Source of the DNA: Candidatus Kerfeldbacteria bacterium
GTDB lineage: Bacteria > Patescibacteriota > Patescibacteriia > UBA10025 > JAHIVO01
NCBI GenBank assembly: GCA_047946875.1
Contig: CP181398.1
Location: 777,041-841,040, forward strand
DNA length: 64,000 nucleotides
Direction of reading: 5' to 3'
In this document: piece after piece, positions 1 through 61,427 of the stretch
Position numbering within the stretch: the stretch's first letter is position 1
How the letters are laid out: every line of letters starts with the position of its first letter
The notes under the pieces: generated by a model
Told to the model about the DNA's origin: nothing
Database searches by the model: none
The model's input: the letters and a program-made list of their open reading frames with translations, nothing else
Translations under genes and position numbers: made by a program

Positions 1-3000
1 GTAACCCTCCATCAAGACAATACCAAGTAGAAAAATTAGTATCAAAGTTATTATTGGTAGTAATAGTATCTATTTTAGGATATTGAACAGAATCTTCAAA
101 TGGTAAAGTTTCGCCAGCACTAACGTTTGGCCAAGGACTCTCACATAAAATATTCCTTATGGAAACATTCTGGGTCAAAGAACCATAATTAAAAGTTGAA
201 CCATCAGCACCTATGCTTAACGAAGCTGCTCCATTCTGATTATTTGAAGTTATGTATCGACTGTTATCTACTCCTGTTACTGTCGTAGTAAATATATCTA
301 CTGGATCATTCTCAGTCCATGCCCAGGTAAAAGAACCAATGGTAAGATTTTGATTATTATTATCACGGGGCGTTGCAGTATACAAATGTTGATTACCTGG
401 CATTGGTACATAATCTCCAAGACAAGCATCTCCTGCACAAGTAAATAAATCACCATAATATGAAATATCATAGGTGGATAATGGTAAAATAGTTGATTGA
501 ACTAATAAGTTATCAACCTGACAAATAATATCCCCCGTTGTAAATGAAATATGAAAATCAGGATATATATCAGGGTATACATTAGAAGTAAAATATACAG
601 GATCATGTTCCATAGCAATGCCTAGCGTAGATAACACTCCTTCCGGACCTGCTTTCATAAACAAATGATAAACTGTAGTTGGATCCATTAGGCCTGTTGG
701 ACTGATTATTATTTCGTCTCCGGCCAGACTTACAGAAGCTGTAAGTGGAATAAGCACTCCACCCTCTATTATCATAATATTAATGTCATTAACAGTGGCT
801 GGATCAATAGCAGCACCAGCAAAATAAATAGATATTGATGCATTCCTGCATACATTACCCGCACCATCAACTGGGATAGTACTCGTAATAAATGGGCGAT
901 TATAACAGCAAGTATCTTTACCACAAAACTCTGTACCACACTGCGCATCACCAGGGGCTGGGTCCGAAGGATCATAATCACAACCACAATACAGACCTCT
1001 TTGATTATTGGTACAATTACCTTTATTAGCTACGCAAGTCAAACCTGTGCTAGAAATTTGCTGATCATTTGGCTCATTCAGTACATTATTATTATTAACA
1101 TCTGGATCACAACATGTTATACAACTATTATTTGCAGGTACTCCTATAGTTGTTATTGTTTTTGGAGGAGCATCAAAATCTCCATTCCCATCTGGATCAA
1201 GATTTCCAGAATTATCTATACAACGATAATTATTGTCTGTAACTAAAGGTGCCGGTGCCCCACAAAATCCATTACTTGTAAAATTTGCCGGCAGTTGACA
1301 TGCACTTCCTGGACCACCTAAACTACAAAATCCACCAGATGGATCACATATATTAGTAGTAGTATTACAACAACTCCCAAAACCTGCATCGATACAGTGA
1401 CTATTATTACTACAACTGATGCCAAAATTTACCTCATTAGAATCACAATACAATGGTCCCGCAGGTTCAATCACAGAAATTCTAGTCTTGCCAGTAACAG
1501 CACCCAAAGGCACTGTAACATTATCAAAAGTTGTATCAAAACCTTGCCCAGTAATATCATTAATATATCCTCCAACTCCGTCATCAAATCGAGCTATCGT
1601 TTGTGGTGTATTATTCAAAGTTAAATTATAACCATTATAGGTAATTGGGTTAGTCCCTTCATAAGCAGCTGCTGGAACAACATTACATAACCCAGGTAAA
1701 CCCGTTATCGGTGGTTGCGCACCACTAGCACATAAGTTTGTTGCAGTAAACATTACTGTTGGCGCTTGTGCTGCATTTGATAATCCATCGACTGTATTAA
1801 TCCGTACACCATACAGACCTATAGCTGGTACATTTACAGTTGCGATTATTTCACTATCTGTCCAAGGATTAGCACAATTGAAGATTCCAGGGTTCCCACC
1901 AAATTCCAGAACTCCAGTAATATTACCAAAATTACATCCAGTAATTGTTACTGTAGTACCAGTCGGACCAGAGTCAGGATTAAGTCCCCAACCAAGAGGT
2001 TGTATAGGTGGTAATGGAACCGTCAAATCACCCACCCAAGGAGTACATTTAAAAGTAGTCAAATCACAAGTACTATGATTACCGTCAACAGGACAAGCGT
2101 TTTCACAATCAATATTATTAGTACAATCATTAATAGTTAACTCCCCTTGAATAGACGCATTACCGGGACCAATAATATCCTGAGCCGACGCCTCAACGAA
2201 TACTGGGGTTCCGTCGGTATTAACGTCAGTATGAATAACCGCATTATTACCACCTGGATTTGGAGGAACGATTGGGATTGTGGCACGTGCAGGACGTGGC
2301 GGTGCTGGATCAACTACCGTCCAAGTCCAATCAAATCCAATTGGATTCAATACTTGTCCAGCTAAGTTACAAGAATCAGGAAAACCAACCGCAGAACCTA
2401 TATAATTTAAATTTAGATTAATTTGTCTTGTAATAGGTATGCCAGGATTCATAACAACATTATCTATCTCACAAACAGTCGGATCAATCCTTGTTTTGAA
2501 TGTCCATGAATATGCATCAAGAGTTCCATCATCACTATCATCGAAATTCAAACCCCCTAAGCTACTTCCAGGGATAGCATTAATTTCTATCCCTTTCATT
2601 AAAACAACTCTATAATATGTATTTGGTGCAAGATTAGCATTAGGACTAATATCGATATTAGTAAAAGTAGTGAAAATACTAGTTGGATTATTACCTATCT
2701 GAGCTAAGCCAGTTACAAAGCTACAACTAGAATCTGTACAACTATATAATTTTACATTAGCAGCATTAATAGAAGCTGTGACGTCATAACTTACGTCAGC
2801 CTGAATCATCGCATTAACACAAGCGCTATCACAAACAGGACTTCTATTAATGACGACTGGATGGTTTGGAGGAATAGGCATAACTGTAAAATCTACTGGA
2901 TTACTGGCCCCAGCATTATTTATGATGGTTACAGCATTAAGTCCAAAAGTTGCAATATTAGGAGCAATACTTGGCACCTCTGTGCTAATAAAATTATCAA

Positions 3001-5218
3001 CCCAAGAATTAATTGGAGCGTCATTTGCATCAAAATTTACTACTTGAGTCACATTATGAGGATCAAATCTTATACCTGATAAACTCACCGTCGTACCATG
3101 ATAACCACTAGCTGGATTTATCCCCCAAATACAAGGTCCACCTGAAATATTAGGATCACTAACATAATAATAAGCACCAAGATTATCAGACGTAGCCACC
3201 CCAAAGGCTGGATCAATATAAGAAATCTCAATTTGTGGCTTCGGTCTCTCAAACTGCACAAACGGTGCAGGAATCGTACTTGTTAGATTTGTAGCTGTAA
3301 CCCCGCCAACTATACCAGGAGTAATTGGTGCTGGTGGTGGTGGTATAATATTGTGATCAGTAAATTCGAAATTTGTAATTGTTGCTGGATGCGCTGTTGT
3401 ACCTTGAAAACAAGAACCAACTACTGTAATACACTGTTCTCGTAATCCACTACCTGGGGCAATATGTGATATATATGGAGCACACTCACAAAGATCTGGA
3501 GTAGTTACTGAAAAACTCCAATCATATAGCAATGGATTTAAATCTTTATCTATTGGTTTATTTGTAATGACATGCACCGTGTAATCTACTCCGGAAACTA
3601 ATGGTACTGGATTAAGGGCGGCATCTGCTGGATGAAATTGAAATACTCTAAAATGATTATTTATCACATTACCAGCCACAGATAAATCCACGTCATCAAT
3701 TATTTCTATATAACCACCAATACCATAAATAGCATATGGACCAGCTGGTGGACGAGTAGAGGCGTCTATCATGGCCTCAAAATGATCTCCATTAGAACCA
3801 TCTATCATAATAGTAACTTCATCATAATACATGCTTGTATTGAAAGGTACGGTAATAACAATATCAGGACAGACTAATAAATCACCAGGAGCTGGATTTA
3901 CTAGTCCCACGCCAGGAACCAAATCATTAGTTTGAAATTCCCAAGGCAGATAAGCAACCATGTCATTGCCACACAAATCTTGTACTCCTGATACTGTTAC
4001 TCGATACCATGTAAATGGCTCCAAAACTAATCCAGCATCAAGATGAACACTAAAACCTTGTGGCGTAATATAAACATTAAGATCAGTAGTATTATTTACT
4101 GTACTATCTACAGCACCAAGCTGACCATCTAATTGCTCAAGTACAAAATTTGCTACTATTGGATGCCCAGGATTCATTGAATCATCTATAGTCGTCGCAT
4201 CTATTGCTTCATTAAAATTTATACTAAATATTGGGACTCTAGTTACATCTCTGTCTTCATAACTTGGACTTGCCTGATCAGACAATGGATATGTAGAAAC
4301 AATTTCGGGATCAACATCATCTACTGTAGTACCTACTTCAAACTGCCAATAATATGCATCATCAGTAGCTCCTGTTAGCGGATGATCATCTAAAATAGCG
4401 CCAGCTAAAGCATCAGCCAATGGATTAGACTTATTATCAGTTACTGATATAGGTATCCATAATCTGTAATTAGTATTTTGAACAAGACTGCCAAATAAAG
4501 TATCATCATGCTTCAAAGTAAAACCATTATTGAATGTTACTAATTCAAGCGGGGTTAGAAAAGGTGTGGCAGGAGGGCTAGGATAATGCCATCCACTCCA
4601 AATACCTGAGCCTTGTGGCAGAGTTTCTTCTTCAATATATATTAAGTCAGAATTGTCACCAGCAAATACGGCTGCAAAAGTAGCTGGATCAATTTTATTA
4701 TTAAACACAGACTGTAACCTACTACACATAGTTACATCCACAGCCCAATCAGTTCCAGAAGCAACACTTGTCTGAGTATAATTCCAAGTAAACTCATATG
4801 GTGGGAAAACACTACTAGAACCACTACCCGTACCAGGACCACCAGTAACTTTATTAGCTGTATCAACTATAAAGGAAACAATAGCCCAAGATAATAAAAC
4901 AATCACCAAGCCAATAGCAGCTTGGGTAATAATTTTCTTAGCTTTGGCAATTTTATCTTCGTTACCAGCTGCAGTCATCCAAATAAATCCACCGTAAATC
5001 ATCATTATAACCGCCACTAAACCAAGGAATCCTAAAGCCCACTGTATGATATTAATGATTGTTGACTCTAAATCTGCCGTACCTAAGCTCAATGTAGTAC
5101 CAATATTTGGGTCTACGGTCACAGCATATACCTGACTTGCAACAAGTAATCCACCAGCAATCAAAATGAATACAAACAAACCTGTGAATATTCCAAAAAA
5201 TATATTTTTTTTATTCAT
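1..5218 (-). CDS. Giant secreted/surface protein, paralog of the 3314-aa gene; N-terminal ~1740 codons only, 3' end runs off the window start
   Basis: The minus-strand frame is open from the ATG at 5218-5216 (MNKKNIFFGIFTGLFVFILIAGG...) to position 1. The DNA is near-identical to 10026-15243 (offset 10025). The encoded N-terminus matches the 3314-aa protein: signal-anchor, then a two-helix hydrophobic pilin-like segment. It is absent from the ORF track, presumably because it is truncated by the window edge. Confidence 0.6.
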   Translation of the reverse strand, partial: MNKKNIFFGIFTGLFVFILIAGGLLVASQVYAVTVDPNIGTTLSLGTADLESTIINIIQWALGFLGLVAVIMMIYGGFIWMTAAGNEDKIAKAKKIITQAAIGLVIVLLSWAIVSFIVDTANKVTGGPGTGSGSSSVFPPYEFTWNYTQTSVASGTDWAVDVTMCSRLQSVFNNKIDPATFAAVFAGDNSDLIYIEEETLPQGSGIWSGWHYPSPPATPFLTPLELVTFNNGFTLKHDDTLFGSLVQNTNYRLWIPISVTDNKSNPLADALAGAILDDHPLTGATDDAYYWQFEVGTTVDDVDPEIVSTYPLSDQASPSYEDRDVTRVPIFSINFNEAIDATTIDDSMNPGHPIVANFVLEQLDGQLGAVDSTVNNTTDLNVYITPQGFSVHLDAGLVLEPFTWYRVTVSGVQDLCGNDMVAYLPWEFQTNDLVPGVGLVNPAPGDLLVCPDIVITVPFNTSMYYDEVTIMIDGSNGDHFEAMIDASTRPPAGPYAIYGIGGYIEIIDDVDLSVAGNVINNHFRVFQFHPADAALNPVPLVSGVDYTVHVITNKPIDKDLNPLLYDWSFSVTTPDLCECAPYISHIAPGSGLREQCITVVGSCFQGTTAHPATITNFEFTDHNIIPPPPAPITPGIVGGVTATNLTSTIPAPFVQFERPKPQIEISYIDPAFGVATSDNLGAYYYVSDPNISGGPCIWGINPASGYHGTTVSLSGIRFDPHNVTQVVNFDANDAPINSWVDNFISTEVPSIAPNIATFGLNAVTIINNAGASNPVDFTVMPIPPNHPVVINRSPVCDSACVNAMIQADVSYDVTASINAANVKLYSCTDSSCSFVTGLAQIGNNPTSIFTTFTNIDISPNANLAPNTYYRVVLMKGIEINAIPGSSLGGLNFDDSDDGTLDAYSWTFKTRIDPTVCEIDNVVMNPGIPITRQINLNLNYIGSAVGFPDSCNLAGQVLNPIGFDWTWTVVDPAPPRPARATIPIVPPNPGGNNAVIHTDVNTDGTPVFVEASAQDIIGPGNASIQGELTINDCTNNIDCENACPVDGNHSTCDLTTFKCTPWVGDLTVPLPPIQPLGWGLNPDSGPTGTTVTITGCNFGNITGVLEFGGNPGIFNCANPWTDSEIIATVNVPAIGLYGVRINTVDGLSNAAQAPTVMFTATNLCASGAQPPITGLPGLCNVVPAAAYEGTNPITYNGYNLTLNNTPQTIARFDDGVGGYINDITGQGFDTTFDNVTVPLGAVTGKTRISVIEPAGPLYCDSNEVNFGISCSNNSHCIDAGFGSCCNTTTNICDPSGGFCSLGGPGSACQLPANFTSNGFCGAPAPLVTDNNYRCIDNSGNLDPDGNGDFDAPPKTITTIGVPANNSCITCCDPDVNNNNVLNEPNDQQISSTGLTCVANKGNCTNNQRGLYCGCDYDPSDPAPGDAQCGTEFCGKDTCCYNRPFITSTIPVDGAGNVCRNASISIYFAGAAIDPATVNDINIMIIEGGVLIPLTASVSLAGDEIIISPTGLMDPTTVYHLFMKAGPEGVLSTLGIAMEHDPVYFTSNVYPDIYPDFHISFTTGDIICQVDNLLVQSTILPLSTYDISYYGDLFTCAGDACLGDYVPMPGNQHLYTATPRDNNNQNLTIGSFTWAWTENDPVDIFTTTVTGVDNSRYITSNNQNGAASLSIGADGSTFNYGSLTQNVSIRNILCESPWPNVSAGETLPFEDSVQYPKIDTITTNNNFDTNFSTWYCLDGGL

Positions 5219-5227
5219 AAAATGATT
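1..5227. repeat. Copy 1 of a ~5.2-kb direct duplication; ~100% identical to copy 2 from ~1000 to 5227 and ~90% in 1-1000
   Basis: Six-frame ORFs 1001-1246, 1397-1624, 1419-1631, 1878-2078, 2147-2365, 2850-3047 and 2861-3079 have identical translations to ORFs at +10025. Direct reading of lines 4861-5220 against 14881-15245 shows only isolated SNPs, e.g. acctaaGctc versus acctaaActc. Confidence 0.9.
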
Positions 5228-5307
5228 TTTTGTAAAATATATATATTCTCCTATAAGAAACTCTAAAATTCATAGCACTTTAATAAAAATAATTTACTAA
5301 AATATTT

Positions 5308-8300
5308 TTATAACTCAATTATATCCCATATCGTTCCTACGCCAGGTATAGTTCCTTGTAAATTCCATGTTATCCCTTCATCATCCGAACGTGCAACATC
5401 ACCATTGCTTCCATAAACATATAATGCTCCATCTAGAACTTCTATTACTCCGCTCGAAATCGAGGCAGTGCCAACGTTAGTCCAAGTTACTCCATCATTA
5501 TTTGAACGATAAATTTGTGTAGCGGGACCGGACCCGACAGCCGCAAATAAATCACTATTAAATAAAACAATTGAGGATACCATTGTATAAATTCCAAAAT
5601 CTATCTGCATATTCCATGAAATACCATGATCAGGGCTAAGGTATATTCTGCCATACTGATCGTTTAATGCAGATGCTACGTCCTCGAAACGTGCGCCTAC
5701 AATTAAATTGCTATTTTGTTCAATTACCGCATCAACTCTCTTTACATCTACTCCTAAATCGCCGGGGTCGTCAAACCAAGTAATACCGTCATTTAATGAA
5801 TAAAACATATCACCATTTTCTTGAGTACCCGCCCAAAGGTCGCCACCAAAATCAATAATCGACCAAACGCGTATAGCACCCGCCAAATCACCGCTAGGAT
5901 TCCAACTTGCGCCACCATTATCTGAATAAAAAATATTACCTCCAGGACGAGTACCTGCCAGTAATCTATTATTATGATTAAGTATTATATCAATATTACC
6001 AGCATCAAATCCACCGATGGTTAAATTGGCTGTATCATACCACGTTGCCCCATTGTTATCTGAACGATAAATATTTCCATCAGGGCTTGAACCAACATAA
6101 TACGAACCTAATCGTTCGACAAAAGAATCTGCGTACACTTGTCCAGGTAAATCAACAATATGAGTCCAGGTGGCTCCACTATCATTTGTACCCCATATCC
6201 CTCCACTAACATTACCGGTAGCAGCTAAAAAGGTTGCGGCAGCAGGACAATCGGTGTCAGTTGCGAATGTACATACAGGAGCGCCTACTCCAGAAGGACA
6301 ACATCCGTTCCCATCTTGACATCCACAATCTGGATCTTGGACAACAGAACACAAAAGAGGACAACCACCACCACAGAGAGGTGTAGTTGGCACACAAGCA
6401 GGAGCCGCACCACCAAATGCATAAAGAGTAAACACAAAATCTACATCATTGGCAGGATTTACCAAATCAGCAAGTTTTATCCAATTATTACCATTGTCAG
6501 TTGATCTATAAACTGCAGCGCTTGTAGTACCAATAAACATTGCATTGTTATCAGAGGCTGAACTAATTATATTTAAAGCACCTGCGGGTACAGTTCCAAG
6601 GGCTGTCCATGTCCCAATACCAGATCTTCTATAAAAATTTTCACTATCTCCTCCAGCATAAACGAATCCTCCATTTTCCATTAATGTGTATATAGCAAGT
6701 GTAGGCATATTAGTAACAGTCCAAGTTACTCCACTATTTGTAGATTCATAAATATGTCCATTTTGACTAGCAACAATAATTGAACTTCCAAAGGATAATA
6801 TCTCACTTATAGTCCCTCCTCCGGTATCCATTACTTCAATACATGGTAAGGCTCCAGCAACGCATCTATAAACTTTACCGGTAAGCAATCCAGCATAAAC
6901 ATCAGAACCATCTTGAGCCAGGGCATCAACTTGAGTAGTAAAAACAGTCAGTAAATTCCACGTAGTTCCCAAATCAGATGATGTGAAAATTCCTTCATCT
7001 GTAGCTGCATATATTTTACCACCAAAAAATATGAGATCTTCAGCATCACCTGATGTACCAAGAGGATTAGGAGTAACAGCCCAATTAAGACCTCCATCGT
7101 TAGATATAAGAACAACATGTCCCCCTCCGGGTCCAAAAGAACCTTGTAAACCAGCAAATAAAACACCACCAACATTCAGAAAGGATTCAGGATAAGACGT
7201 ACCACCAGCACTAAAATTATTATTCCAAGTGGAACCGCCATCATTAGTTAAAAAAATATCTGCAGTTGAACCGGAATGTGTACCTACCATTATATCCGCA
7301 GCTATCGGTGGAATTGCCGGCGGTGGACAATCATTATCAGTTGCAAATGTACATCCCAATCCTGCAGGACAACACCCATTGTTATCTTGGCATGCACAGT
7401 CAGGATCTTCTACTATCGTACATATAGGAGGGCAAGCTGGGATACCACCACAGAGAGGGACACTAGGAACACAAACAGGGGCACCACATGCACCAGCCAC
7501 ACTAGGTATATTATCATAAAAACTAATATTGCCAGCGTTATCTTCTGCTATCACGTCTACATAAAATGATGTATTTGAAATATCAGAAGTCCAAACACCT
7601 TCAAAAATATTATCTAAGTCTGGGTCTGTCATTGCTACAGGATTATTAGCACTAATTACTGATATTCCATCAGGATTTTGTAATACTGCTTGTACACTAG
7701 CTATACCATCAGCGTCTGTAACCTCAGCCCTAAAACAAAAGTCAGTGCCTGTACCACCAGTAGGCGGATTAACAGTTGGCATGATAATTTGAGGTCCACC
7801 ATTTCCTCTAACATTAACCAATATTTCAATACTTTCACTCCTATTCCCAGCTGTATCTACTGCCTCTGCTTGAATAGAATGCCAACCATCAGTCAATACA
7901 TCTGTATTAATAGCATATGAGTATGGAACCAACGGATCAACAAACTGTCGATGATAATCAATATAGAAATTTACATGCTGAACACCACGATTATCATTAG
8001 CGTCTACTTCAATATCTATATCACCAACTACCGCTGTACCATAAATTGGCGTTGGTGGATGTATAAAAGATATTGTTGGCGCGATCTTATCATTCATCTC
8101 ATTATCTACAGGAATAGTTATAGTAGCACTACCAATATTCCCATACATATCATATGCATCTATCCGAATATCATGCTCTTCATTAAGATACCCTAAGGTG
8201 TCCCATTCCCAAGTCCATTGATTGTTAGCAACATGAGTTGCATTACCTCGGAAAATATTATCAACAAAAACTTGAACATAATCAATCCAATTCAAATCAT

Positions 8301-11300
8301 CTACTGTAATATCTATATCAATTACATCTTTTCTTTGACATATTATTCCAGCTCCACATGGAGTAACTTGATTACAAGGCGGGCCAACACCTGAACAAGT
8401 ACCCGGAATATTACCAATAGTAACTACTGGAGCAGTAGTATCAAAATTTTCTACCTTTACAAAAATAGTTTTAGTAGAAACAAGCGTTGTGTTATCTGTC
8501 GCCGTAGCTATAAGTGTATAAATACCATTTGGCGTATCTGGAGCAATTGGTGGACCAGTACAATCCCCAACAGTATCCCAAAGGTGTGTACCAGAATATG
8601 GATTTGATAATCCTCCAAACACATGAAGGGCACAAGGAGTTTCTACCCCATCACTATCAAACGCATGTATTTCTACACCTATAATACCGCCATCATCAGA
8701 AGCGACAACATCTATTGGTACAGTCCCCGTAATAGTCTGACCATCTGCCAAAGAAATAATATCAATGAAAGGAGGATTGTTAACAACTCCAGAATTATTT
8801 ATTACTAAAGTATATGTAGGGCTATTGCTCCAATTTCCAACATTGTCATATGCTTTTAATAGTAAACTATGATTACCATCAACATACTCATTAGAAATAA
8901 AATTCCATGACCAACTAGCAGGATCATCATCTGTATACTTGTATTGACCATCGATATAAAATTCTACTTTAGCTACACCCGTAGCTGTAGCAATAGGCAG
9001 ATCAGTCAAAATAACTTCTACGGCCTGTGTTCCATTAACATTATTAAAAATATTAGCTACCGGAGCAACAGTATTTAAAGTAACCGCATCAAACTGAGGA
9101 CCAACACGATCTGTGATCGTCCCAGTAACATTCTTAAAATAATTAAAACAATTACAATCTGCATTAGTAAAAGAACTGCATGGATCAAACACTCCAGCCA
9201 AACCGATATTCCAAGTATTGAATCCCCCATATATTAAGTATTCTAAATGTCCATAAAGATCTACATTCTTACCATCTGGAGATACTATATATTGATAAGT
9301 ATAAGAATTTGAAGGGCAGAAATATTCTTGATTTGTATCATCCCAACAAGTACTTGTATTAAAAGGTGCTAAACAAATATCAAAAATATTATAAGGATCA
9401 GTCGGCATACTCAATCCAAGACTTGAGCCCAACTTATCACTCCAAGAAGGCCAACCTGAAGAAGTAAGATTTTTGATATAAGTACCTCCTTCTAGTTTTG
9501 GAAATTCTCCATTTATTTCTTTATATTCCAAAGCGCCAGTATAAATGTCATTAAGATCACTAACTCTCTTCATATCTCGATGCATTTTTTCTTTATTAGT
9601 ATCTGTATCATTAATAGTAAATTTCCAATTAGCTAACAATGCATTATAAATACTTAATGTTTCAGCAGAAGCTCCTTCGTTATATGAAATCAAATATAAT
9701 TGTGGGTATAAGGCATCTCCAACCTGTGCTGCACCGTCAAAACCAGTACCTGAGATATTCCAAGCTGCTACATATACTGTTCTACCTGACCTGATCGCGT
9801 TATATCCATCCACTACAATATCTTGTGGGGCTGGGGCAGCAGAACCAAAATGATTAAAATACCATTCTCTAGCTGACTTACCTTCTTCATTTTCATAAAC
9901 CCTAATACCAATCGCATCGTCTGACAAATCTCGTAAGAAGAAAAATTCTTTTAATAATTCATCCACCCCAATAGTACTAGGTGTACCTTCATGAACCACC
10001 GTATCAATCACTAGTTTTAAGGTTGGTAACCCTCCATCAAGGCAATACCAAGTAGAAAAATTAGTATCAAAGTTATTATTGGTAGTAATAGTATCTATTT
10101 TAGGATATTGAACAGAATCTTCAAATGGTAAAGTTTCGCCAGCACTAACATTTGGCCAAGGACTCTCACATAAAATATTCCTTATGGAAACATTCTGGGT
10201 CAAAGAACCATAATCCGTACTAGCAACACCTATGCTTAACGAAGCTGCTCCATTCTGATTATTTGAAGTTATATATCGAGCATTTGGTGGACCTGGGTTT
10301 GTAGTTGTAAAAATATCTATTGGATCATTCTCGGTCCATGTCCAGGTAAAAGAACCGATGGTAAGATTTTGATTATTGTTATCACGGGGCGCTGCAGTAT
10401 ACGCATGCTGATTACCTGCCAAGCCTGGTACTGGTACATAATCCCCAAGACAAGCATCTCCTGCACAAGTAAATAAATCACCATAATCTGAAATGTCATA
10501 AGTGTATAATGGTAAAATAGTTGATTGAACTAATAAGTTATCAACCTGACAAATAATATCCCCCGTTGTAAATGAAATATGAAAATCAAGATATGGATCA
10601 GGGTATACATTAGAAGTAAAATAGGGACCTGGTTCCATAGCAATGCCTTGCGTAGATAACACTCCTTCCGGACCTGCTTTCATATACAAATCATAATTTG
10701 TAGTTTGATCCATTAGACCTGTTGGACTGATTATTATTTCATCTCCGGCCAAACTTACAGAAGCCGTAAATGGAATAGACACTCCACCATTTTCTAAAAT
10801 AATATTAGTATCATTAACAGTAGCTGGATCAATAGCAGCGCCAGCAAAATAAATAGATATTGATGCATTCCTGCATACATTACCCGCACCATCAGCTGGG
10901 ATAGTACTCGTAACATCTGGGCGATTATAACAGCAAGTATCTTTACCACAAAACTCTGTACCACACTGCGCATCACCAGGGGCTGGGTCCGAAGGATCAT
11001 AATCACAACCACAATACAGACCTCTTTGATTATTGGTACAATTACCTTTATTAGCTACGCAAGTCAAACCTGTGCTAGAAATTTGCTGATCATTTGGCTC
11101 ATTCAGTACATTATTATTATTAACATCTGGATCACAACATGTTATACAACTATTATTTGCAGGTACTCCTATAGTTGTTATTGTTTTTGGAGGAGCATCA
11201 AAATCTCCATTCCCATCTGGATCAAGATTTCCAGAATTATCTATACAACGATAATTATTGTCTGTAACTAAAGGTGCCGGTGCCCCACAAAATCCATTAC

Positions 11301-14300
11301 TTGTAAAATTTGCCGGCAGTTGACATGCACTTCCTGGACCACCTAAACTACAAAATCCACCAGATGGATCACATATATTAGTAGTAGTATTACAACAACT
11401 CCCAAAACCTGCATCGATACAGTGACTATTATTACTACAACTGATGCCAAAATTTACCTCATTAGAATCACAATACAATGGTCCCGCAGGTTCAATCACA
11501 GAAATTCTAGTCTTGCCAGTAACAGCACCCAAAGGCACTGTAACATTATCAAAAGTTGTATCAAAACCTTGCCCAGTAATATCATTAATATATCCTCCAA
11601 CTCCGTCATCAAATCGAGCTATCGTTTGTGGTGTATTATTCAAAGTTAAATTATAACCATTATAGGTAATTGGGTTAGTCCCTTCATAAGCAGCTGCTGG
11701 AACAACATTACATAACCCAGGTAAACCCGTTATCGGTGGTTGCGCACCACTAGCACATAAGTTTGTTGCAGTAAACATTACTGTTGGCGCTTGTGCTGCA
11801 TTTGATAATCCATCGACTGTATTAATCCGTACACCATACAGACCTATAGCTGGTACATTTACAGTTGCGATTATTTCACTATCTGTCCAAGGATTAGCAC
11901 AATTGAAGATTCCAGGGTTCCCACCAAATTCCAGAACTCCAGTAATATTACCAAAATTACATCCAGTAATTGTTACTGTAGTACCAGTCGGACCAGAGTC
12001 AGGATTAAGTCCCCAACCAAGAGGTTGTATAGGTGGTAATGGAACCGTCAAATCACCCACCCAAGGAGTACATTTAAAAGTAGTCAAATCACAAGTACTA
12101 TGATTACCGTCAACAGGACAAGCGTTTTCACAATCAATATTATTAGTACAATCATTAATAGTTAACTCCCCTTGAATAGACGCATTACCGGGACCAATAA
12201 TATCCTGAGCCGACGCCTCAACGAATACTGGGGTTCCGTCGGTATTAACGTCAGTATGAATAACCGCATTATTACCACCTGGATTTGGAGGAACGATTGG
12301 GATTGTGGCACGTGCAGGACGTGGCGGTGCTGGATCAACTACCGTCCAAGTCCAATCAAATCCAATTGGATTCAATACTTGTCCAGCTAAGTTACAAGAA
12401 TCAGGAAAACCAACCGCAGAACCTATATAATTTAAATTTAGATTAATTTGTCTTGTAATAGGTATGCCAGGATTCATAACAACATTATCTATCTCACAAA
12501 CAGTCGGATCAATCCTTGTTTTGAATGTCCATGAATATGCATCAAGAGTTCCATCATCACTATCATCGAAATTCAAACCCCCTAAGCTACTTCCAGGGAT
12601 AGCATTAATTTCTATCCCTTTCATTAAAACAACTCTATAATATGTATTTGGTGCAAGATTAGCATTAGGACTAATATCGATATTAGTAAAAGTAGTGAAA
12701 ATACTAGTTGGATTATTACCTATCTGAGCTAAGCCAGTTACAAAGCTACAACTAGAATCTGTACAACTATATAATTTTACATTAGCAGCATTAATAGAAG
12801 CTGTGACGTCATAACTTACGTCAGCCTGAATCATCGCATTAACACAAGCGCTATCACAAACAGGACTTCTATTAATGACGACTGGATGGTTTGGAGGAAT
12901 AGGCATAACTGTAAAATCTACTGGATTACTGGCCCCAGCATTATTTATGATGGTTACAGCATTAAGTCCAAAAGTTGCAATATTAGGAGCAATACTTGGC
13001 ACCTCTGTGCTAATAAAATTATCAACCCAAGAATTAATTGGAGCGTCATTTGCATCAAAATTTACTACTTGAGTCACATTATGAGGATCAAATCTTATAC
13101 CTGATAAACTCACCGTCGTACCATGATAACCACTAGCTGGATTTATCCCCCAAATACAAGGTCCACCTGAAATATTAGGATCACTAACATAATAATAAGC
13201 ACCAAGATTATCAGACGTAGCCACCCCAAAGGCTGGATCAATATAAGAAATCTCAATTTGTGGCTTCGGTCTCTCAAACTGCACAAACGGTGCAGGAATC
13301 GTACTTGTTAGATTTGTAGCTGTAACCCCGCCAACTATACCAGGAGTAATTGGTGCTGGTGGTGGTGGTATAATATTGTGATCAGTAAATTCGAAATTTG
13401 TAATTGTTGCTGGATGCGCTGTTGTACCTTGAAAACAAGAACCAACTACTGTAATACACTGTTCTCGTAATCCACTACCTGGGGCAATATGTGATATATA
13501 TGGAGCACACTCACAAAGATCTGGAGTAGTTACTGAAAAACTCCAATCATATAGCAATGGATTTAAATCTTTATCTATTGGTTTATTTGTAATGACATGC
13601 ACCGTGTAATCTACTCCGGAAACTAATGGTACTGGATTAAGGGCGGCATCTGCTGGATGAAATTGAAATACTCTAAAATGATTATTTATCACATTACCAG
13701 CCACAGATAAATCCACGTCATCAATTATTTCTATATAACCACCAATACCATAAATAGCATATGGACCAGCTGGTGGACGAGTAGAGGCGTCTATCATGGC
13801 CTCAAAATGATCTCCATTAGAACCATCTATCATAATAGTAACTTCATCATAATACATGCTTGTATTGAAAGGTACGGTAATAACAATATCAGGACAGACT
13901 AATAAATCACCAGGAGCTGGATTTACTAGTCCCACGCCAGGAACCAAATCATTAGTTTGAAATTCCCAAGGCAGATAAGCAACCATGTCATTGCCACACA
14001 AATCTTGTACTCCTGATACTGTTACTCGATACCATGTAAATGGCTCCAAAACTAATCCAGCATCAAGATGAACACTAAAACCTTGTGGCGTAATATAAAC
14101 ATTAAGATCAGTAGTATTATTTACTGTACTATCTACAGCACCAAGCTGACCATCTAATTGCTCAAGTACAAAATTTGCTACTATTGGATGCCCAGGATTC
14201 ATTGAATCATCTATAGTCGTCGCATCTATTGCTTCATTAAAATTTATACTAAATATTGGGACTCTAGTTACATCTCTGTCTTCATAACTTGGACTTGCCT

Positions 14301-15252
14301 GATCAGACAATGGATATGTAGAAACAATTTCGGGATCAACATCATCTACTGTAGTACCTACTTCAAACTGCCAATAATATGCATCATCAGTAGCTCCTGT
14401 TAGCGGATGATCATCTAAAATAGCGCCAGCTAAAGCATCAGCCAATGGATTAGACTTATTATCAGTTACTGATATAGGTATCCATAATCTGTAATTAGTA
14501 TTTTGAACAAGACTGCCAAATAAAGTATCATCATGCTTCAAAGTAAAACCATTATTGAATGTTACTAATTCAAGCGGGGTTAGAAAAGGTGTGGCAGGAG
14601 GGCTAGGATAATGCCATCCACTCCAAATACCTGAGCCTTGTGGCAGAGTTTCTTCTTCAATATATATTAAGTCAGAATTGTCACCAGCAAATACGGCTGC
14701 AAAAGTAGCTGGATCAATTTTATTATTAAACACAGACTGTAACCTACTACACATAGTTACATCCACAGCCCAATCAGTTCCAGAAGCAACACTTGTCTGA
14801 GTATAATTCCAAGTAAACTCATATGGTGGGAAAACACTACTAGAACCACTACCCGTACCAGGACCACCAGTAACTTTATTAGCTGTATCAACTATAAAGG
14901 AAACAATAGCCCAAGATAATAAAACAATCACCAAGCCAATAGCAGCTTGGGTAATAATTTTCTTAGCTTTGGCAATTTTATCTTCGTTACCAGCTGCAGT
15001 CATCCAAATAAATCCACCGTAAATCATCATTATAACCGCCACTAAACCAAGGAATCCTAAAGCCCACTGTATGATATTAATGATTGTTGACTCTAAATCT
15101 GCCGTACCTAAACTCAATGTAGTACCAATATTTGGGTCTACGGTCACAGCATATACCTGACTTGCAACAAGTAATCCACCAGCAATCAAAATGAATACAA
15201 ACAAACCTGTGAATATTCCAAAAAATATATTTTTTTTATTTCGTACCCCCAT
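5308..15252 (-). CDS. Giant secreted surface protein, 3314 aa. It has an N-terminal signal-anchor plus two-helix pilin-like hydrophobic segment, T/N/G-rich Ig-like/beta-rich repeats, two Cys-rich modules and two BNR/Asp-box (SxDxGxTW) beta-propeller-like repeat blocks at the C-terminus.
   Basis: Single 9945-nt ORF with ATG at 15252-15250. N-terminus MGVRNKKNIFFGIFTGLFVFILIAGG, then IINIIQWALGFLGLVAVIMMIYGGFIWMTAAGNEDKIAKAKKIITQAAIGLVIVLLSWAIV. C-terminal third contains about 11 Asp-box motifs (SNDGGLNW, SSDLGTTW, STNSGVTW, STDNGNNW, TNDSGATW, SDNNGATW, SDNGGASW, SLNDGITW, SPDHGISW, SNNDGVTW, SDDEGITW). Two CxxC-rich linkers are present (CGAPVCVPSVPLCGGIPACPPICTIVEDPDCACQDNNGCCP and ACVPTTPLCGGGCPLLCSVVQDPDCGCQDGNGCCP). 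Confidence 0.85.
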   Translation of the reverse strand: MGVRNKKNIFFGIFTGLFVFILIAGGLLVASQVYAVTVDPNIGTTLSLGTADLESTIINIIQWALGFLGLVAVIMMIYGGFIWMTAAGNEDKIAKAKKIITQAAIGLVIVLLSWAIVSFIVDTANKVTGGPGTGSGSSSVFPPYEFTWNYTQTSVASGTDWAVDVTMCSRLQSVFNNKIDPATFAAVFAGDNSDLIYIEEETLPQGSGIWSGWHYPSPPATPFLTPLELVTFNNGFTLKHDDTLFGSLVQNTNYRLWIPISVTDNKSNPLADALAGAILDDHPLTGATDDAYYWQFEVGTTVDDVDPEIVSTYPLSDQASPSYEDRDVTRVPIFSINFNEAIDATTIDDSMNPGHPIVANFVLEQLDGQLGAVDSTVNNTTDLNVYITPQGFSVHLDAGLVLEPFTWYRVTVSGVQDLCGNDMVAYLPWEFQTNDLVPGVGLVNPAPGDLLVCPDIVITVPFNTSMYYDEVTIMIDGSNGDHFEAMIDASTRPPAGPYAIYGIGGYIEIIDDVDLSVAGNVINNHFRVFQFHPADAALNPVPLVSGVDYTVHVITNKPIDKDLNPLLYDWSFSVTTPDLCECAPYISHIAPGSGLREQCITVVGSCFQGTTAHPATITNFEFTDHNIIPPPPAPITPGIVGGVTATNLTSTIPAPFVQFERPKPQIEISYIDPAFGVATSDNLGAYYYVSDPNISGGPCIWGINPASGYHGTTVSLSGIRFDPHNVTQVVNFDANDAPINSWVDNFISTEVPSIAPNIATFGLNAVTIINNAGASNPVDFTVMPIPPNHPVVINRSPVCDSACVNAMIQADVSYDVTASINAANVKLYSCTDSSCSFVTGLAQIGNNPTSIFTTFTNIDISPNANLAPNTYYRVVLMKGIEINAIPGSSLGGLNFDDSDDGTLDAYSWTFKTRIDPTVCEIDNVVMNPGIPITRQINLNLNYIGSAVGFPDSCNLAGQVLNPIGFDWTWTVVDPAPPRPARATIPIVPPNPGGNNAVIHTDVNTDGTPVFVEASAQDIIGPGNASIQGELTINDCTNNIDCENACPVDGNHSTCDLTTFKCTPWVGDLTVPLPPIQPLGWGLNPDSGPTGTTVTITGCNFGNITGVLEFGGNPGIFNCANPWTDSEIIATVNVPAIGLYGVRINTVDGLSNAAQAPTVMFTATNLCASGAQPPITGLPGLCNVVPAAAYEGTNPITYNGYNLTLNNTPQTIARFDDGVGGYINDITGQGFDTTFDNVTVPLGAVTGKTRISVIEPAGPLYCDSNEVNFGISCSNNSHCIDAGFGSCCNTTTNICDPSGGFCSLGGPGSACQLPANFTSNGFCGAPAPLVTDNNYRCIDNSGNLDPDGNGDFDAPPKTITTIGVPANNSCITCCDPDVNNNNVLNEPNDQQISSTGLTCVANKGNCTNNQRGLYCGCDYDPSDPAPGDAQCGTEFCGKDTCCYNRPDVTSTIPADGAGNVCRNASISIYFAGAAIDPATVNDTNIILENGGVSIPFTASVSLAGDEIIISPTGLMDQTTNYDLYMKAGPEGVLSTQGIAMEPGPYFTSNVYPDPYLDFHISFTTGDIICQVDNLLVQSTILPLYTYDISDYGDLFTCAGDACLGDYVPVPGLAGNQHAYTAAPRDNNNQNLTIGSFTWTWTENDPIDIFTTTNPGPPNARYITSNNQNGAASLSIGVASTDYGSLTQNVSIRNILCESPWPNVSAGETLPFEDSVQYPKIDTITTNNNFDTNFSTWYCLDGGLPTLKLVIDTVVHEGTPSTIGVDELLKEFFFLRDLSDDAIGIRVYENEEGKSAREWYFNHFGSAAPAPQDIVVDGYNAIRSGRTVYVAAWNISGTGFDGAAQVGDALYPQLYLISYNEGASAETLSIYNALLANWKFTINDTDTNKEKMHRDMKRVSDLNDIYTGALEYKEINGEFPKLEGGTYIKNLTSSGWPSWSDKLGSSLGLSMPTDPYNIFDICLAPFNTSTCWDDTNQEYFCPSNSYTYQYIVSPDGKNVDLYGHLEYLIYGGFNTWNIGLAGVFDPCSSFTNADCNCFNYFKNVTGTITDRVGPQFDAVTLNTVAPVANIFNNVNGTQAVEVILTDLPIATATGVAKVEFYIDGQYKYTDDDPASWSWNFISNEYVDGNHSLLLKAYDNVGNWSNSPTYTLVINNSGVVNNPPFIDIISLADGQTITGTVPIDVVASDDGGIIGVEIHAFDSDGVETPCALHVFGGLSNPYSGTHLWDTVGDCTGPPIAPDTPNGIYTLIATATDNTTLVSTKTIFVKVENFDTTAPVVTIGNIPGTCSGVGPPCNQVTPCGAGIICQRKDVIDIDITVDDLNWIDYVQVFVDNIFRGNATHVANNQWTWEWDTLGYLNEEHDIRIDAYDMYGNIGSATITIPVDNEMNDKIAPTISFIHPPTPIYGTAVVGDIDIEVDANDNRGVQHVNFYIDYHRQFVDPLVPYSYAINTDVLTDGWHSIQAEAVDTAGNRSESIEILVNVRGNGGPQIIMPTVNPPTGGTGTDFCFRAEVTDADGIASVQAVLQNPDGISVISANNPVAMTDPDLDNIFEGVWTSDISNTSFYVDVIAEDNAGNISFYDNIPSVAGACGAPVCVPSVPLCGGIPACPPICTIVEDPDCACQDNNGCCPAGLGCTFATDNDCPPPAIPPIAADIMVGTHSGSTADIFLTNDGGSTWNNNFSAGGTSYPESFLNVGGVLFAGLQGSFGPGGGHVVLISNDGGLNWAVTPNPLGTSGDAEDLIFFGGKIYAATDEGIFTSSDLGTTWNLLTVFTTQVDALAQDGSDVYAGLLTGKVYRCVAGALPCIEVMDTGGGTISEILSFGSSIIVASQNGHIYESTNSGVTWTVTNMPTLAIYTLMENGGFVYAGGDSENFYRRSGIGTWTALGTVPAGALNIISSASDNNAMFIGTTSAAVYRSTDNGNNWIKLADLVNPANDVDFVFTLYAFGGAAPACVPTTPLCGGGCPLLCSVVQDPDCGCQDGNGCCPSGVGAPVCTFATDTDCPAAATFLAATGNVSGGIWGTNDSGATWTHIVDLPGQVYADSFVERLGSYYVGSSPDGNIYRSDNNGATWYDTANLTIGGFDAGNIDIILNHNNRLLAGTRPGGNIFYSDNGGASWNPSGDLAGAIRVWSIIDFGGDLWAGTQENGDMFYSLNDGITWFDDPGDLGVDVKRVDAVIEQNSNLIVGARFEDVASALNDQYGRIYLSPDHGISWNMQIDFGIYTMVSSIVLFNSDLFAAVGSGPATQIYRSNNDGVTWTNVGTASISSGVIEVLDGALYVYGSNGDVARSDDEGITWNLQGTIPGVGTIWDIIEL
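10026..15252. repeat. Copy 2 of the ~5.2-kb direct duplication (5' half of the 3314-aa gene)
   Basis: Same as copy 1. Identity ends exactly at the start-codon region: both copies share ...aaaaaatatattttttttatt and then diverge (MNKK... versus MGVRNKK...). Upstream regions are unrelated. Confidence 0.9.
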
Positions 15253-15298
15253 AATTATAATTAAAAATTTATTGACAAGCTATTTAAATTTCTAAAGT

Positions 15299-15739
15299 CT
15301 AACCCAACTCATCTTTGACAATCTGGGTCACCAGTTTACCGTCAGCCTGACCATTCAATTTAGCCATTGTCTGACCCATCACTGCCCCAAAATTCTTATT
15401 ATCACCCATTTTATCGATAATTTCTAAAACAATTTTTTTTACATCATCTTCAGACATCTGCTCTGGTAAATATTTTTCTATAATCTTCAATTCATCTTTT
15501 TCTTTTTGTGCCATTTCTTCTCGCCCACCTTTTGCAAAAGAATCCGCTGCTTCTTTTCGTCTTTTTGCTTGGTTGGACAATACTGACAAAACCTCATCAT
15601 CACCTAATTCTTTTTTCTTTAATTCAATAGACTTATTTTGCAATGCACTTTTTACCATACGCAAAACAGACACTTCTAATTCATTTTTCTGTGTCATGGC
15701 TTGTCTAATATCTTGTTCTATTTTGTTTTGCAAAGACAT
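15299..15739 (-). CDS. yqeY: GatB/YqeY domain protein
   Basis: 146 aa. Full-length collinear resemblance to YqeY family (MSLQNKIEQDIRQAMTQKNELEVSVLRMVKSALQNKSIELKKKELGDDEVLSVL...AKRRKEAADSFAKGGREEMAQKEKDELKIIEKYLPEQMSEDDV). Confidence 0.8.
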   Translation of the reverse strand: MSLQNKIEQDIRQAMTQKNELEVSVLRMVKSALQNKSIELKKKELGDDEVLSVLSNQAKRRKEAADSFAKGGREEMAQKEKDELKIIEKYLPEQMSEDDVKKIVLEIIDKMGDNKNFGAVMGQTMAKLNGQADGKLVTQIVKDELG

Positions 15740-15770
15740 AGCTAATAAAAAGTTATGTTTTGTATAAAAA

Positions 15771-16070
15771 TTACTTTTTTATTCTTGCTTGAAGGAGTTT
15801 TTTTATTGTCCCTCTTTTATTAGGTCTTCTTGGATCAATAAAATCATCTAACTTACCGATCTTTCGAAGTAACTCTTTTTTATCTTTGATTAGAGTACGT
15901 CTAGCAGCATCTCCTTTTTTCTCCAATTTACTTTTTTTAATAGAGTAATATCTACCTTTTTTAGCCTGTAATAAAATACCACTTGATTGAACTCGTTTTG
16001 TAAATCTCCTTATTAAACTTTCGGCTGATTCACTGTCTTTCTTTTTTACTTCTACCACTTGAGAATACAC
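15771..16070 (-). CDS. rpsU: 30S ribosomal protein S21
   Basis: 99 aa, basic, with the motif ...SAESLIRRFTKRVQSSGIL...RRYYSIKKSKLEKK typical of S21. GTG start abuts an AAGGAGG Shine-Dalgarno; the true start may be the second GTG at ~16058. Confidence 0.75.
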   Translation of the reverse strand: MYSQVVEVKKKDSESAESLIRRFTKRVQSSGILLQAKKGRYYSIKKSKLEKKGDAARRTLIKDKKELLRKIGKLDDFIDPRRPNKRGTIKKLLQARIKK

Positions 16071-16227
16071 CTCCTTTTCAATATTTTTTTAGTTATTTAA
16101 TATTAATAATATACCACTTATTTAGCACTATTGTCAATTAATGTTATTAATATATTAGAAAAAACAACAAATATATTGTTTAATAATATTCATTAGCTAA
16201 TGTTAGCAATTATTGTTCTTTTTTAAG

Positions 16228-16268
16228 CTGTCCGCCCCCGCCTACGTCGTCACTTTGGCGGGCAGGTC
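16228..16268. other. GC-rich palindromic hairpin (ccgcccccgcc...ggcgggcagg) in an AT-rich intergenic region
   Basis: A ~40-nt island of >70% GC with inverted repeat CCGCC/GGCGG arms between rpsU and the HIT gene. No T-tract in terminator orientation. Resembles the GC-rich inserts in the tRNA-Val loci. Confidence 0.4.
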
Positions 16269-16591
16269 TAGAGGTCTGCCAAAAAATGTATATGTAGATG
16301 CATTACTTCTTGCCCACAATCTTTACCAGTATTTACTACCAACTTATACCCTTTTTCATTTAATCCTAGATTATTTGCAATTTCTTTTGTCCCTAACATC
16401 ATATCTGACAACAACTTACTATCATCCATATCTAGATGTAACATCGATTTGATATGTTTTTTCGGTATAAACAAGTAATGAATCGGCGCCTTAGGAACAA
16501 TATCTTTGATTACTATAAAATTATCTCGATCTAAAATATATTCCGTGGGTATTTCTTTGTTTATTATTTTACAAAAAATGCAATCATCCAT
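16268..16591 (-). CDS. HIT-family (histidine triad) nucleotide hydrolase
   Basis: 107 aa. Histidine triad HLHIHFL near the C-terminus and N-terminal CIFCKII motif typical of HinT-like proteins. Confidence 0.85.
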   Translation of the reverse strand: MDDCIFCKIINKEIPTEYILDRDNFIVIKDIVPKAPIHYLFIPKKHIKSMLHLDMDDSKLLSDMMLGTKEIANNLGLNEKGYKLVVNTGKDCGQEVMHLHIHFLADL

Positions 16592-16603
16592 AATTAGCTC
16601 TAA

Positions 16604-18055: not shown

Positions 18056-18057
18056 AG

Positions 18058-18708
18058 TTAATTTGTTATTAAATTATATTCTGGGGCTGAGAAACTACTA
18101 AATTGATCAAATGGCCATACTCTCAACCAAGCTCGCCCAATTATATTATCTCCATTTAGAGGTCCAAAACTTCTAGAATCTAAACTCACTGGCCTATTAT
18201 CCCCCATTAAATAATATTCTTCCTCGCCTATTTCTTCTTTTTTATAACCCGATGTTATCATACCATCTTTTAAATAACTTTCAGATAATAAAAATCCATT
18301 AATGTTTTCATTATTATGAATAATAATATCACCATCCTTAATCTCAACAGTTTCACCAGGTAAACCTATGATTCTTTTAATTAAATAATCAGATTTTTTT
18401 TCTGGAACTTTTACTACTACAACATCCCCACGTTCTGGATCAGTAAAACGATAAGTTATTTCATCAACAATTAAATACTCATTATCATAATAATTTGGCT
18501 CCATGGATGCTCCTCGAACATAAAAAGGTTGAAACAAAAAATATCTAATTGGTATTATTACCACTAGTGCTATCAAAACTATTTTAACCAATTCTATAAT
18601 AAAACCTTTTGGAGATTTAGCAAAAGATGGAATATCATCATTTTGATTATCTTTATTATCATTCTCACTCTTCTTATTTTGATTTACTGATTTGTCCGTT
18701 TGTTTCAT
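18058..18708 (-). CDS. lepB: Signal peptidase I
   Basis: 216 aa. TM helix, then catalytic Ser box GASMEP, Lys box YLIKRIIGLPGE and GDNR box typical of S26 peptidases. N-terminal N/K/D-rich low-complexity extension. Confidence 0.9.
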   Translation of the reverse strand: MKQTDKSVNQNKKSENDNKDNQNDDIPSFAKSPKGFIIELVKIVLIALVVIIPIRYFLFQPFYVRGASMEPNYYDNEYLIVDEITYRFTDPERGDVVVVKVPEKKSDYLIKRIIGLPGETVEIKDGDIIIHNNENINGFLLSESYLKDGMITSGYKKEEIGEEEYYLMGDNRPVSLDSRSFGPLNGDNIIGRAWLRVWPFDQFSSFSAPEYNLITN

Positions 18709-21701: not shown

Positions 21702-21726
21702 AATATCTACCCTCTCTCTTATATTT

Positions 21727-22881: not shown

Positions 22882-22895
22882 AATATTATAACAAT

Positions 22896-23807: not shown

Positions 23808-23811
23808 TCAC

Positions 23812-24810: not shown

Positions 24811-24832
24811 TTTTTTTATTTTAACTAATTAT

Positions 24833-25768: not shown

Positions 25769-25835
25769 TAATATCTACTCCCCTCCTAATTGTTCTTAAA
25801 TGAATATTTAAGTGAGAGTAAAAAATTTAGTTAGC

Positions 25836-41270: not shown

Positions 41271-41484
41271 TTTTTTTGGGTGCTTATTTTTTTTACCTAG
41301 TTTAAACACTTTAAATATATGCAAAACTTTTTTATTATTTTAGCTTTGCTTAAGTTAGCAAAAAATTTAACTTAACTTAACAAACATAACAAAACTATTA
41401 TATAATATTATTATGATTTTGTCCAATAAAAATAACTCTCATCATCTTTATAAATGATTCGAATGATTTAAATTATGATTAAAC

Positions 41485-52483: not shown

Positions 52484-52573
52484 TATCTACCTGCCTATTC
52501 ATGGGCACAATAAATTTTTTCTACTTTAAAAAACTTGCATTATTTTTCAAAGTATTGTACATATATAGTTATT

Positions 52574-61421: not shown

Positions 61422-61427
61422 ATTATA

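Follow-up and report, generated by a model that had tools for sequence, protein, structure and literature searches.

Bacterial paralogues known to evolve in concert include tufA/tufB, Helicobacter babA/babB and Neisseria opa. In Neisseria pilE/pilS, Borrelia vlsE and Anaplasma msp2, one expression site is accompanied by many promoterless partial cassettes, and diversity-generating retroelements are common in the Candidate Phyla Radiation (CPR). In the tandem paralogue cluster lpl of Staphylococcus aureus, the exchanged unit consists of the 3' end of one open reading frame (ORF), the spacer and the 5' end of the next (PMC2568036). Here we compare with these systems a pair of giant genes, A and B, found on a stretch of contig CP181398.1 from an uncultured Patescibacterium (64,000 nucleotides, hereafter the window). 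A and B are homologous and adjacent, lie 89 nt apart on the minus strand, and both have intact reading frames. We favour, with a probability of roughly 0.6, a history in which a normally single-copy gene was duplicated in tandem by unequal crossover in this lineage, after which the copies were homogenised by gene conversion.

Patescibacteria, or CPR bacteria, also carry tandem arrays of VirB2-like pilin genes (T4SS_pilin PF18895 / TrbC), whose products are small, share on average 25% identity and are usually encoded near virB4 (bioRxiv 10.1101/2025.01.22.634366). Three further reports describe giant proteins in the host-dependent Vampirococcus lugosii (PMC8080830) and Omnitrophota (bioRxiv 10.1101/2023.11.21.568195) and an enrichment of huge uncharacterised proteins in Peregrinibacteria (PMC11573180). 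In the parts read, none of the three describes a yqeY-giant-ftsAZ family, a VirB2-like anchor or the tandem duplication of a giant gene.

Mosaic identity of two tandem giant genes

Gene A (5308..15252, minus strand), as delimited by the ORF list, its translation and Pfam, encodes a protein of 3314 aa that starts MGVRNKKNIFF. Gene B starts MNKKNIFF, with its ATG at 5218-5216, and the window holds its 5' 1739 codons (1..5218, minus strand). The B ORF is open for all of these codons, with no stop up to the window edge, and its 3' part lies off the window. A blastn search of the window against itself found one long direct repeat, 1-5215 against 10026-15240, with an offset of 10,025 bp and 98.2% identity over 5,224 columns, and no repeat of A/B sequence in the 64 kb beyond this pair.

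Base-by-base alignment revealed that the repeat is a mosaic. Directly after the start codon of B, and after codon 4 of A, comes a near-identical tract, 893..5215 in B (aa 2-1442) and 10918..15240 in A (aa 5-1445), both on the minus strand, with a single difference in 4,323 bp (G at 5087, A at 15112), which is synonymous. This is followed by a divergent island of 703 bp, 190..892 in B (aa 1443-1676) and 10215..10917 in A (aa 1446 to ~1680), also on the minus strand, in which 89 columns differ (~87% identity) and every indel block is in-frame. In the distal block, 1..189 on the minus strand of B and 10026-10214 in A, the copies are again ~99% identical, with only two single-nucleotide polymorphisms (SNPs; positions 17 and 125); the most conserved stretch of the family core, described below, begins in this block. 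The heterogeneity is significant both between the island and the tract (p = 5e-77) and between the distal block and the tract (2/189 vs 1/4323, p = 0.005).

Nei-Gojobori counts on the A/B codon alignment reflect the same pattern. The synonymous divergence (dS) is 0.001 and the nonsynonymous divergence (dN) 0 in the tract (893-5215), while the island (190-892) has a dS of 0.17 and a dN of 0.10 (dN/dS 0.59), and the last 63 codons before the window edge (1-189) have a dS of ~0.05. Such abrupt, significant switches between near-identical and diverged blocks are expected of tandem paralogues under gene conversion. The jump in dS from 0.001 to 0.17 is the signature of recombination, be it conversion or an imported patch, or of very recent duplication. 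Since identity is back at 99% in 1-189, A and B are probably homologous well past the window edge.

A first-pass annotation of the window had described two tandem paralogous giant genes and a near base-for-base duplication of ~5.2 kb at a distance of 10,025 bp, and the shared strand, the two intact ORFs and the self-blastn repeat agree with this. It had also placed the end of identity precisely at the start codon, where we find the first shared base directly after B's ATG (5215 = 15240). Its internal boundaries had to be redrawn. Near-identity with isolated SNPs was said to begin at ~1000; the near-identity stands, but alignment of the two copies places its boundary at 893 in B coordinates and leaves one SNP instead of several. 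The divergence and indels that it reported for positions 1-1000, at ~90% identity, are real but bounded to 190-892.

This arrangement resembles the lpl cluster, in which adjacent same-strand paralogues likewise have near-identity blocks that end abruptly beside diverged blocks. As in lpl, the 10,025-bp unit spans two genes, extending from within the start of one to the start of the following one. Unlike lpl, the locus has only two copies, 10 kb per gene and an unusually long identical tract of 4.3 kb, and belongs to an uncultured Patescibacterium.

We next looked at the island itself, which starts exactly at the boundary of a Big_5 domain (A aa 1444-1446) and encodes a cassette of two immunoglobulin (Ig)-like domains, Big_5 and a second beta-sandwich. 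In an AlphaFold2 model of A aa 1436-1745 (12 aligned sequences, mean pLDDT 70.9), two beta-sandwich domains were predicted, the first with high and the second with moderate confidence. Foldseek searches with the model returned generic Ig-like strings only, e.g. those of the S-layer proteins SbsC/SbsB/Sap, titin and RPTP Ig1-2. No part of the family core is less conserved or varies more in length than this cassette (266-760 aa, triplicated in P0016), and family identity dips at aa 1501-1700. Peptides unique to the island tell the two copies apart, e.g. PDVTSTIPADGAGN vs PFITSTIPVDGAGN.

The 74 substitutions in the island are spread over all base changes and over the three codon positions (24/22/28). 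Loop-focused diversification was rejected, as loops of the AlphaFold2 model hold no excess of the 42 residues at which A and B differ: 20 fall on its 109 strand positions and 22 on the 128 others (p = 0.87). Relaxed constraint in a fast-evolving protein would fit the dN/dS of 0.59. A diversity-generating retroelement was also considered, given the localised variable region in a surface protein. It was rejected, as Pfam detected no reverse transcriptase among the window ORFs scanned and we found neither adenine bias nor a template repeat; unlike the target of such an element, the island is 700 nt long, contains indels and is changed at all bases and codon positions. Silent or partial donor cassettes were sought by tblastn of both island variants against the 64-kb window, which found only A and B. 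The pair shares with the pilE/pilS, vlsE and msp2 systems the potential for recombination between homologous surface-protein sequences and the conserved flanks around a variable segment, but differs from them in consisting of two complete genes with no extra cassettes in the window.

The giant protein family and its locus

Protein A consists of a signal peptide, a pilin hairpin, a conserved core rich in Cys and Ig-like domains that extends to ~aa 2000, and a lineage-specific C-terminal third. Pfam identified a T4SS_pilin domain (VirB2-like, PF18895) at aa 53-120 (44.0 bits against a cut-off of 26.6, covering profile positions 4-71 of 71), Big_5 at aa 1444-1527, three Big_7 domains, one Big_13 domain and two BNR/Sortilin-like propellers at the C-terminus. 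The signal peptide and hairpin helices were judged by eye from the sequence, without a predictor: aa 8-34 resemble a cleavable signal peptide (...VYA|VT), and the pilin domain appears as two hydrophobic helices with a basic loop. If this topology is right, a membrane hairpin would hold ~3,190 residues outside the cell. In this Peregrinibacteria-like Patescibacterium, the product of A and B is most likely a giant envelope or surface protein with a membrane anchor.

With a PF18895 domain in their N-terminal 130 aa and their tandem duplication, A and B recall the pilin arrays of other Patescibacteria. They are not small pilins, which combine a signal peptide and a two-helix hairpin in ~100-150 aa; here ~3,190 further residues follow, and the hairpin anchors a 3,300-aa ectodomain. 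In further contrast to the arrays, the copies are >98% identical, and no VirB4, VirB6 or other component of a type IV secretion system was found among the ORFs of the 64-kb window scanned against Pfam. The proteins also resemble the CPR and Omnitrophota giants, with which they share a length of several thousand residues, a membrane anchor, Ig-like, Cys-rich and beta-propeller modules and a presumed role in host attachment. At 3.3 kaa, they are smaller than the Omnitrophota giants. Among the metagenome loci, the only repeats found lie in small VirB2-like pilin arrays like those already described for CPR bacteria (bioRxiv 10.1101/2025.01.22.634366). These arrays of 2-8 genes, with DNA repeats of 250-700 nt at 76-91% identity, belong to other Patescibacteria and were seen in L038 (2559-2886 vs 18143-18476), L051, L052, L053, L067, L092 and L098. 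A second pilin-domain match lies ~1.6-2.7 kb from the first in L050, L084, L086, L088, L094, L098 and L099, and ~15.5 kb from it in L038.

In an exhaustive HMMER search, A aa 1-1200 matched 244 cluster representatives at E<=1e-30, a number that rose to 4,773 at E<=1e-10. The listed matches almost all measure 1,500-6,200 aa and many of the top ones are colinear with A from residue 1, yet even the best are only 40-44% identical to A; a protein search with A aa 1-700 gave a best match of 37% identity. Exact look-ups of A and of the window's HisRS returned no entry, and residues 1240-1739 of B had no protein match at E<=1e-10 and none in either the genome or the metagenome collections scanned. An alignment of A with 16 relatives delimited a conserved core of ~2,000 residues with ~100 invariant positions, many of them Cys and Trp, while the C-terminal third was lineage-specific. 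Where the source gives a name, family members are called 'pilin, partial' or 'Ig-like domain-containing protein' of Patescibacteria. A PDB sequence search with A found no sequence-related solved structure. The giant gene belongs to a large, uncharacterised and apparently undescribed Patescibacteria family, with members of 1,800-6,000 aa, that combines a signal peptide, a VirB2-like hairpin, a Cys/Trp-rich core and variable C-terminal modules.

The locus of this family is conserved. In the relatives L017/L018, L019, L020, L021, L022 and L023, the gene order is lepB-hisS-HIT-S21-yqeY, the giant gene, small TSP3_bac genes, an ORF of ~380 aa and then ybeY-dagK-ftsA-ftsZ. L017 and L019-L023 have one giant gene each, with T4SS_pilin, Big_5 and Big_7 domains. 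The window contains the upstream half of this locus, including the S21-like ORF, and the downstream half lies beyond it. By Pfam, the ORF list and synteny, the neighbours lepB, hisS, HIT, S21-like and yqeY (15299..18708, minus strand) mark the locus of A and B as orthologous to the single-copy locus of the relatives.

A further 80 loci came from a metagenome scan that used the family alignment. The core gene adjoins yqeY and/or ybeY-ftsAZ in ~23 distinct loci; the family core was seen at the conserved locus in the window (5308-15252) and in L017, L019-L028, L030-L032, L035-L041, L045, L046, L050 and L084. In all 12 distinct relatives whose locus is visible on both sides, yqeY and ybeY are separated by 7.7-15 kb, enough for a single giant gene only, and no DNA repeat of at least 250 bp was found in any locus carrying the family core. 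Since all relatives with both flanks visible have one copy, the two-copy state appears to be derived, lineage-specific and so far unique.

The organism itself is distant from its relatives. Its HisRS is 44-47% identical to those of Peregrinibacteria/Peribacteria among the GTDB representatives, where the giant gene is not next to hisS, and 50-66% identical to those of relatives recovered via the giant protein. The giant protein diverges about twice as fast as the products of neighbouring genes (31-38% vs 55-68% identity to relatives).

The junction and competing histories of the pair

The start of B reads ATG|AAT AAA AAA AAT ATA (MNKKN) and that of A reads ATG GGG GTA CGA|AAT AAA AAA AAT ATA (MGVRNKKN). 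Upstream of both start codons the A and B sequences are unrelated: 46 nt separate A from yqeY, and a spacer of 89 nt separates B from A's stop codon. As orthologues begin M-x-x-x-N-K-K (MGIENKKSF in P0001, MTTQNKKKF in P0002), A has the ancestral start and B is the copy without three codons. The gene next after the single giant gene of L017 starts with ATGAACAAAAAAAAT, which encodes MNKKN as in B (extended by one codon, ATGAACAAAAAAAATAAG, MNKKNK), and in L020 the gene after the giant gene begins MNKHF. The secreted proteins of the window generally have K-rich starts encoded by A-rich strings. Short tandem repeats were rejected as a cause, since we found one trivial 21-nt array at the junction and none other.

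These starts are consistent with an unequal crossing-over between two AAT AAA AAA AAT (NKKN) strings. The proposed crossover site is the A-rich string AATAAAAAAAAT (NKKN, containing an A8 run), at 5205..5215 on the minus strand directly after B's ATG and repeated at 15230-15240 in A (codons 5-8). One partner would have been codons 5-8 of the giant gene and the other codons 2-5 of a small secreted-protein gene formerly downstream of it. The duplicated unit of 10,025 bp would then begin at codon 5 of the giant gene and take in the gene's stop codon, the 89-nt spacer and an ATG, and the spacer would derive from the sequence that preceded the small secreted-protein gene before the duplication. Such a crossover would place the neighbour's spacer and ATG, that is its translation-initiation region, in-frame before codon 5 of B. 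Identity would thus stop at B's ATG because B seems to have taken over the initiation region of the gene that once lay downstream. The model predicts that B is a whole-gene copy of ~3,311 aa, its remaining part colinear with 5308-10025, and that its stop codon is followed by a second 89-nt spacer and ATGAATAAAAAAAAT, fused to the small secreted-protein gene (of TSP3_bac/Big_7 type), with the ~380-aa ORF, ybeY, dagK, ftsA and ftsZ beyond it. Duplication of the whole 10,025-bp unit by unequal crossover is, we infer, the simplest reading of the junction. The first-pass annotation had taken the 5' part to be homogenised or very recently duplicated. Recombination or recent duplication is retained here, but its suggestion that only the 5' half is homogenised while the rest diverges is probably wrong, as identity is 99% past the 0.7-kb island and the junction fits a whole unit.

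The A8 homopolymer (T8 on the plus strand) is present at 5205-5212 and 15230-15237, in codons 2-5 of B and 5-8 of A, and similar A7-A8 runs were seen at the starts of the L017 orthologue and of the L017 downstream gene. The AT-rich window contains 26 A8-type runs, so the A8 at both gene starts may be chance. The run is possibly a slipped-strand on/off site or a mere consequence of an NKK signal-peptide n-region in an AT-rich genome.

The two spacers differ in their signals. The 46-nt yqeY-A spacer (15253..15298, minus strand) has a promoter-like match (TTGTCA ... TATAAT-like) and is unrelated to the A-B spacer. The latter (89 nt, 5219..5307, minus strand, between A's stop codon and B's ATG) was scanned and contains neither a terminator-like nor a sigma-70-like or consensus promoter site. 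The earlier claim that the promoters of A and B differ is thus not upheld, as no promoter-like site was found in front of B within the spacer. Since the spacer lacks a detectable terminator or promoter, B may be co-transcribed with A. The cell could express the giant protein in two isoforms, distinguished by the Ig cassette and possibly also by their 3' parts beyond the window.

That A and B are real tandem paralogues is very probable, and within this reading an older duplicate homogenised by conversion is about an even prospect. In this history, the duplication would be as old as a dS of ~0.17 implies and gene conversion would keep the copies alike except in the island. RecA-type conversion between direct repeats would maintain near-identity in the first 4.3 kb and in the block after the island, while the island of two Ig-like domains would have stayed, or become, 13% different. 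We slightly favour conversion of an older duplicate because a continuous process explains near-identity at any sampling time, and because a diverged island would reinforce itself as a barrier to conversion.

Several points weigh against this history. An island identity of 87% would hinder conversion, although it would equally hinder import. A perfect direct repeat of 4.3 kb is recombinationally unstable and a known trap for assemblers. The 3' part of B lies off the window, which makes the whole-gene duplication and the junction model predictions. In the collections searched, the closest relatives are 37-44% identical for the giant protein and 66% for HisRS, and none has both copies, as the classic phylogenetic test for conversion, in which paralogues of one genome are more alike than orthologues of related two-copy genomes, would require. 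Finally, the dN/dS of 0.59 and the even spread over strands and loops give no positive sign of adaptive differences.

Conversion would not be needed if the whole gene had been duplicated very recently and ~0.7-0.9 kb of one copy then replaced by a diverged allele from another strain. The near-identity on both sides of the island is what a single imported tract of typical length would leave, and the island is a length-variable, poorly conserved region of the family that could be hypervariable between strains. The window also encodes dprA and type IV pilus genes, a competence-type machinery, and all relatives are single-copy, as such a recent origin would have it. This history nevertheless demands that two rare events reached high frequency while one SNP arose in 4.3 kb. 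No donor allele is known for the patch, and the databases hold no close relative. We regard it as unlikely.

An assembly artefact is improbable. The true sequence would then contain one giant gene, or two that are less alike, and a mis-join or mixing of haplotypes in the consensus would have produced the pair. Perfect repeats of 4.3 kb and A/T runs at a junction are typical causes of mis-joins in metagenome assemblies, and the collections searched held no independent assembly for comparison. Against this, the junctions are coherent, with B's in-frame ATG right after the spacer that follows A's stop; the island indels are all in-frame, and both ORFs are open. The SNP between the tracts shows that no simple loop was traversed twice, a strain bubble would not create the new junction of spacer, ATG and NKKN, and the junction has a plausible natural origin. 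By the sequence alone, conversion, recent duplication with an imported patch and assembly error all fit the mosaic.

It is established that tandem direct repeats of surface-protein genes will recombine. A dedicated variation system, speculatively raised as antigenic or adhesin variation in the first-pass annotation, would use the 4.3-kb tract as a recombination handle to shuffle cassettes (the Ig pair, perhaps C-terminal modules) between an expressed and a reserve copy; it would suit A/B differences in extracellular Ig-like domains and episymbiotic Patescibacteria, in which variation in host recognition is plausible and tandem variable VirB2-like pilin arrays exist (10.1101/2025.01.22.634366), but is highly improbable, as silent or partial cassettes are absent from the 64-kb window, B has its own start codon and is a whole gene instead of a promoterless cassette, there are two variants only, no reverse transcriptase or recombinase was found among the nearby ORFs scanned against Pfam, the substitutions have no A bias, the changes are not loop-enriched and no relative has a second copy.

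Other features of the window and biological meaning

The window is part of a low-GC (0.30-0.38) Patescibacterium chromosome and encodes hisS, lepB, der, pth, mfd, dprA, topA, parAB, type IV pilus genes and tRNAs; an Rfam scan of the window found tRNAs only. A third giant ORF (26970-41324, minus strand, 4784 aa) is unrelated to A and B. Its only Pfam hits are to an N-terminal DNA-binding motif of HTH_17/MerR type at aa 29-77, which by eye is followed by a hydrophobic segment and then an acidic, repeat-containing region. The DNA of this ORF has a GC content of 0.40-0.46, against ~0.32 in its flanks, and weak repeats at 34957-35125 vs 36583-36754, 31454-31577 vs 34394-34517 and 34048-34419 vs 35661-36027.

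Six secreted-protein genes lie upstream of lepB (19230-26852, minus strand) and are conserved in L019 (1-5902), L021 (1-6337) and L023 (1-5533). Their products measure 338, 311, 332, 303 (dockerin), 393 (with a cohesin hit in orthologues) and 845 aa (CarboxypepD_reg), which suggests a cohesin-dockerin-type surface assembly in these Patescibacteria. The order of this cluster relative to a GT2 gene differs between the window and L023, and in L017 the GT2 gene directly adjoins lepB.

Topoisomerase I is seemingly split. An ORF of 744 aa (52535-54769, plus strand) has Toprim, Topoisom_bac and zinc ribbons, and eight bases after it an ORF of 163 aa (54778-55269, plus strand) has three more Zn_ribbon_Top1 motifs. 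Either the gene is genuinely split, or a stop or frameshift interrupts its C-terminal zinc-ribbon region. The genes parA and parB are at 60558-62189 (minus strand). Together with the tRNA genes and lgt nearby, they suggest that the window may lie close to the replication origin. The cumulative GC skew falls monotonically across the window, with no switch.

Tandem duplication with recombination between the copies is in itself a textbook process; what is unusual is its setting in a 10-kb gene of an uncultured bacterium with a reduced genome. The locus also flags where Patescibacteria assemblies and gene catalogues are likely to break or collapse. The pair might even be maintained in two copies as a recombination module for an episymbiont's core envelope protein, with the 4.3-kb handle driving frequent unequal exchange, although we hold this to be quite improbable. 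If it were true, lineages would gain and lose copies, moving between one, two or more, and would reshuffle the Ig cassette, possibly also C-terminal modules, and host binding could change rapidly without silent cassettes or a dedicated enzyme.

For the protein, the duplication points to the two-Ig-domain cassette as the part that is free to vary, while the membrane-proximal 1,440 residues are kept identical. A giant protein that is syntenic, single-copy and fast-evolving is a good candidate for a host-contact, S-layer or core envelope protein, and the existence of a giant-protein family fixed beside the cell-division genes may be more useful than the duplication itself.

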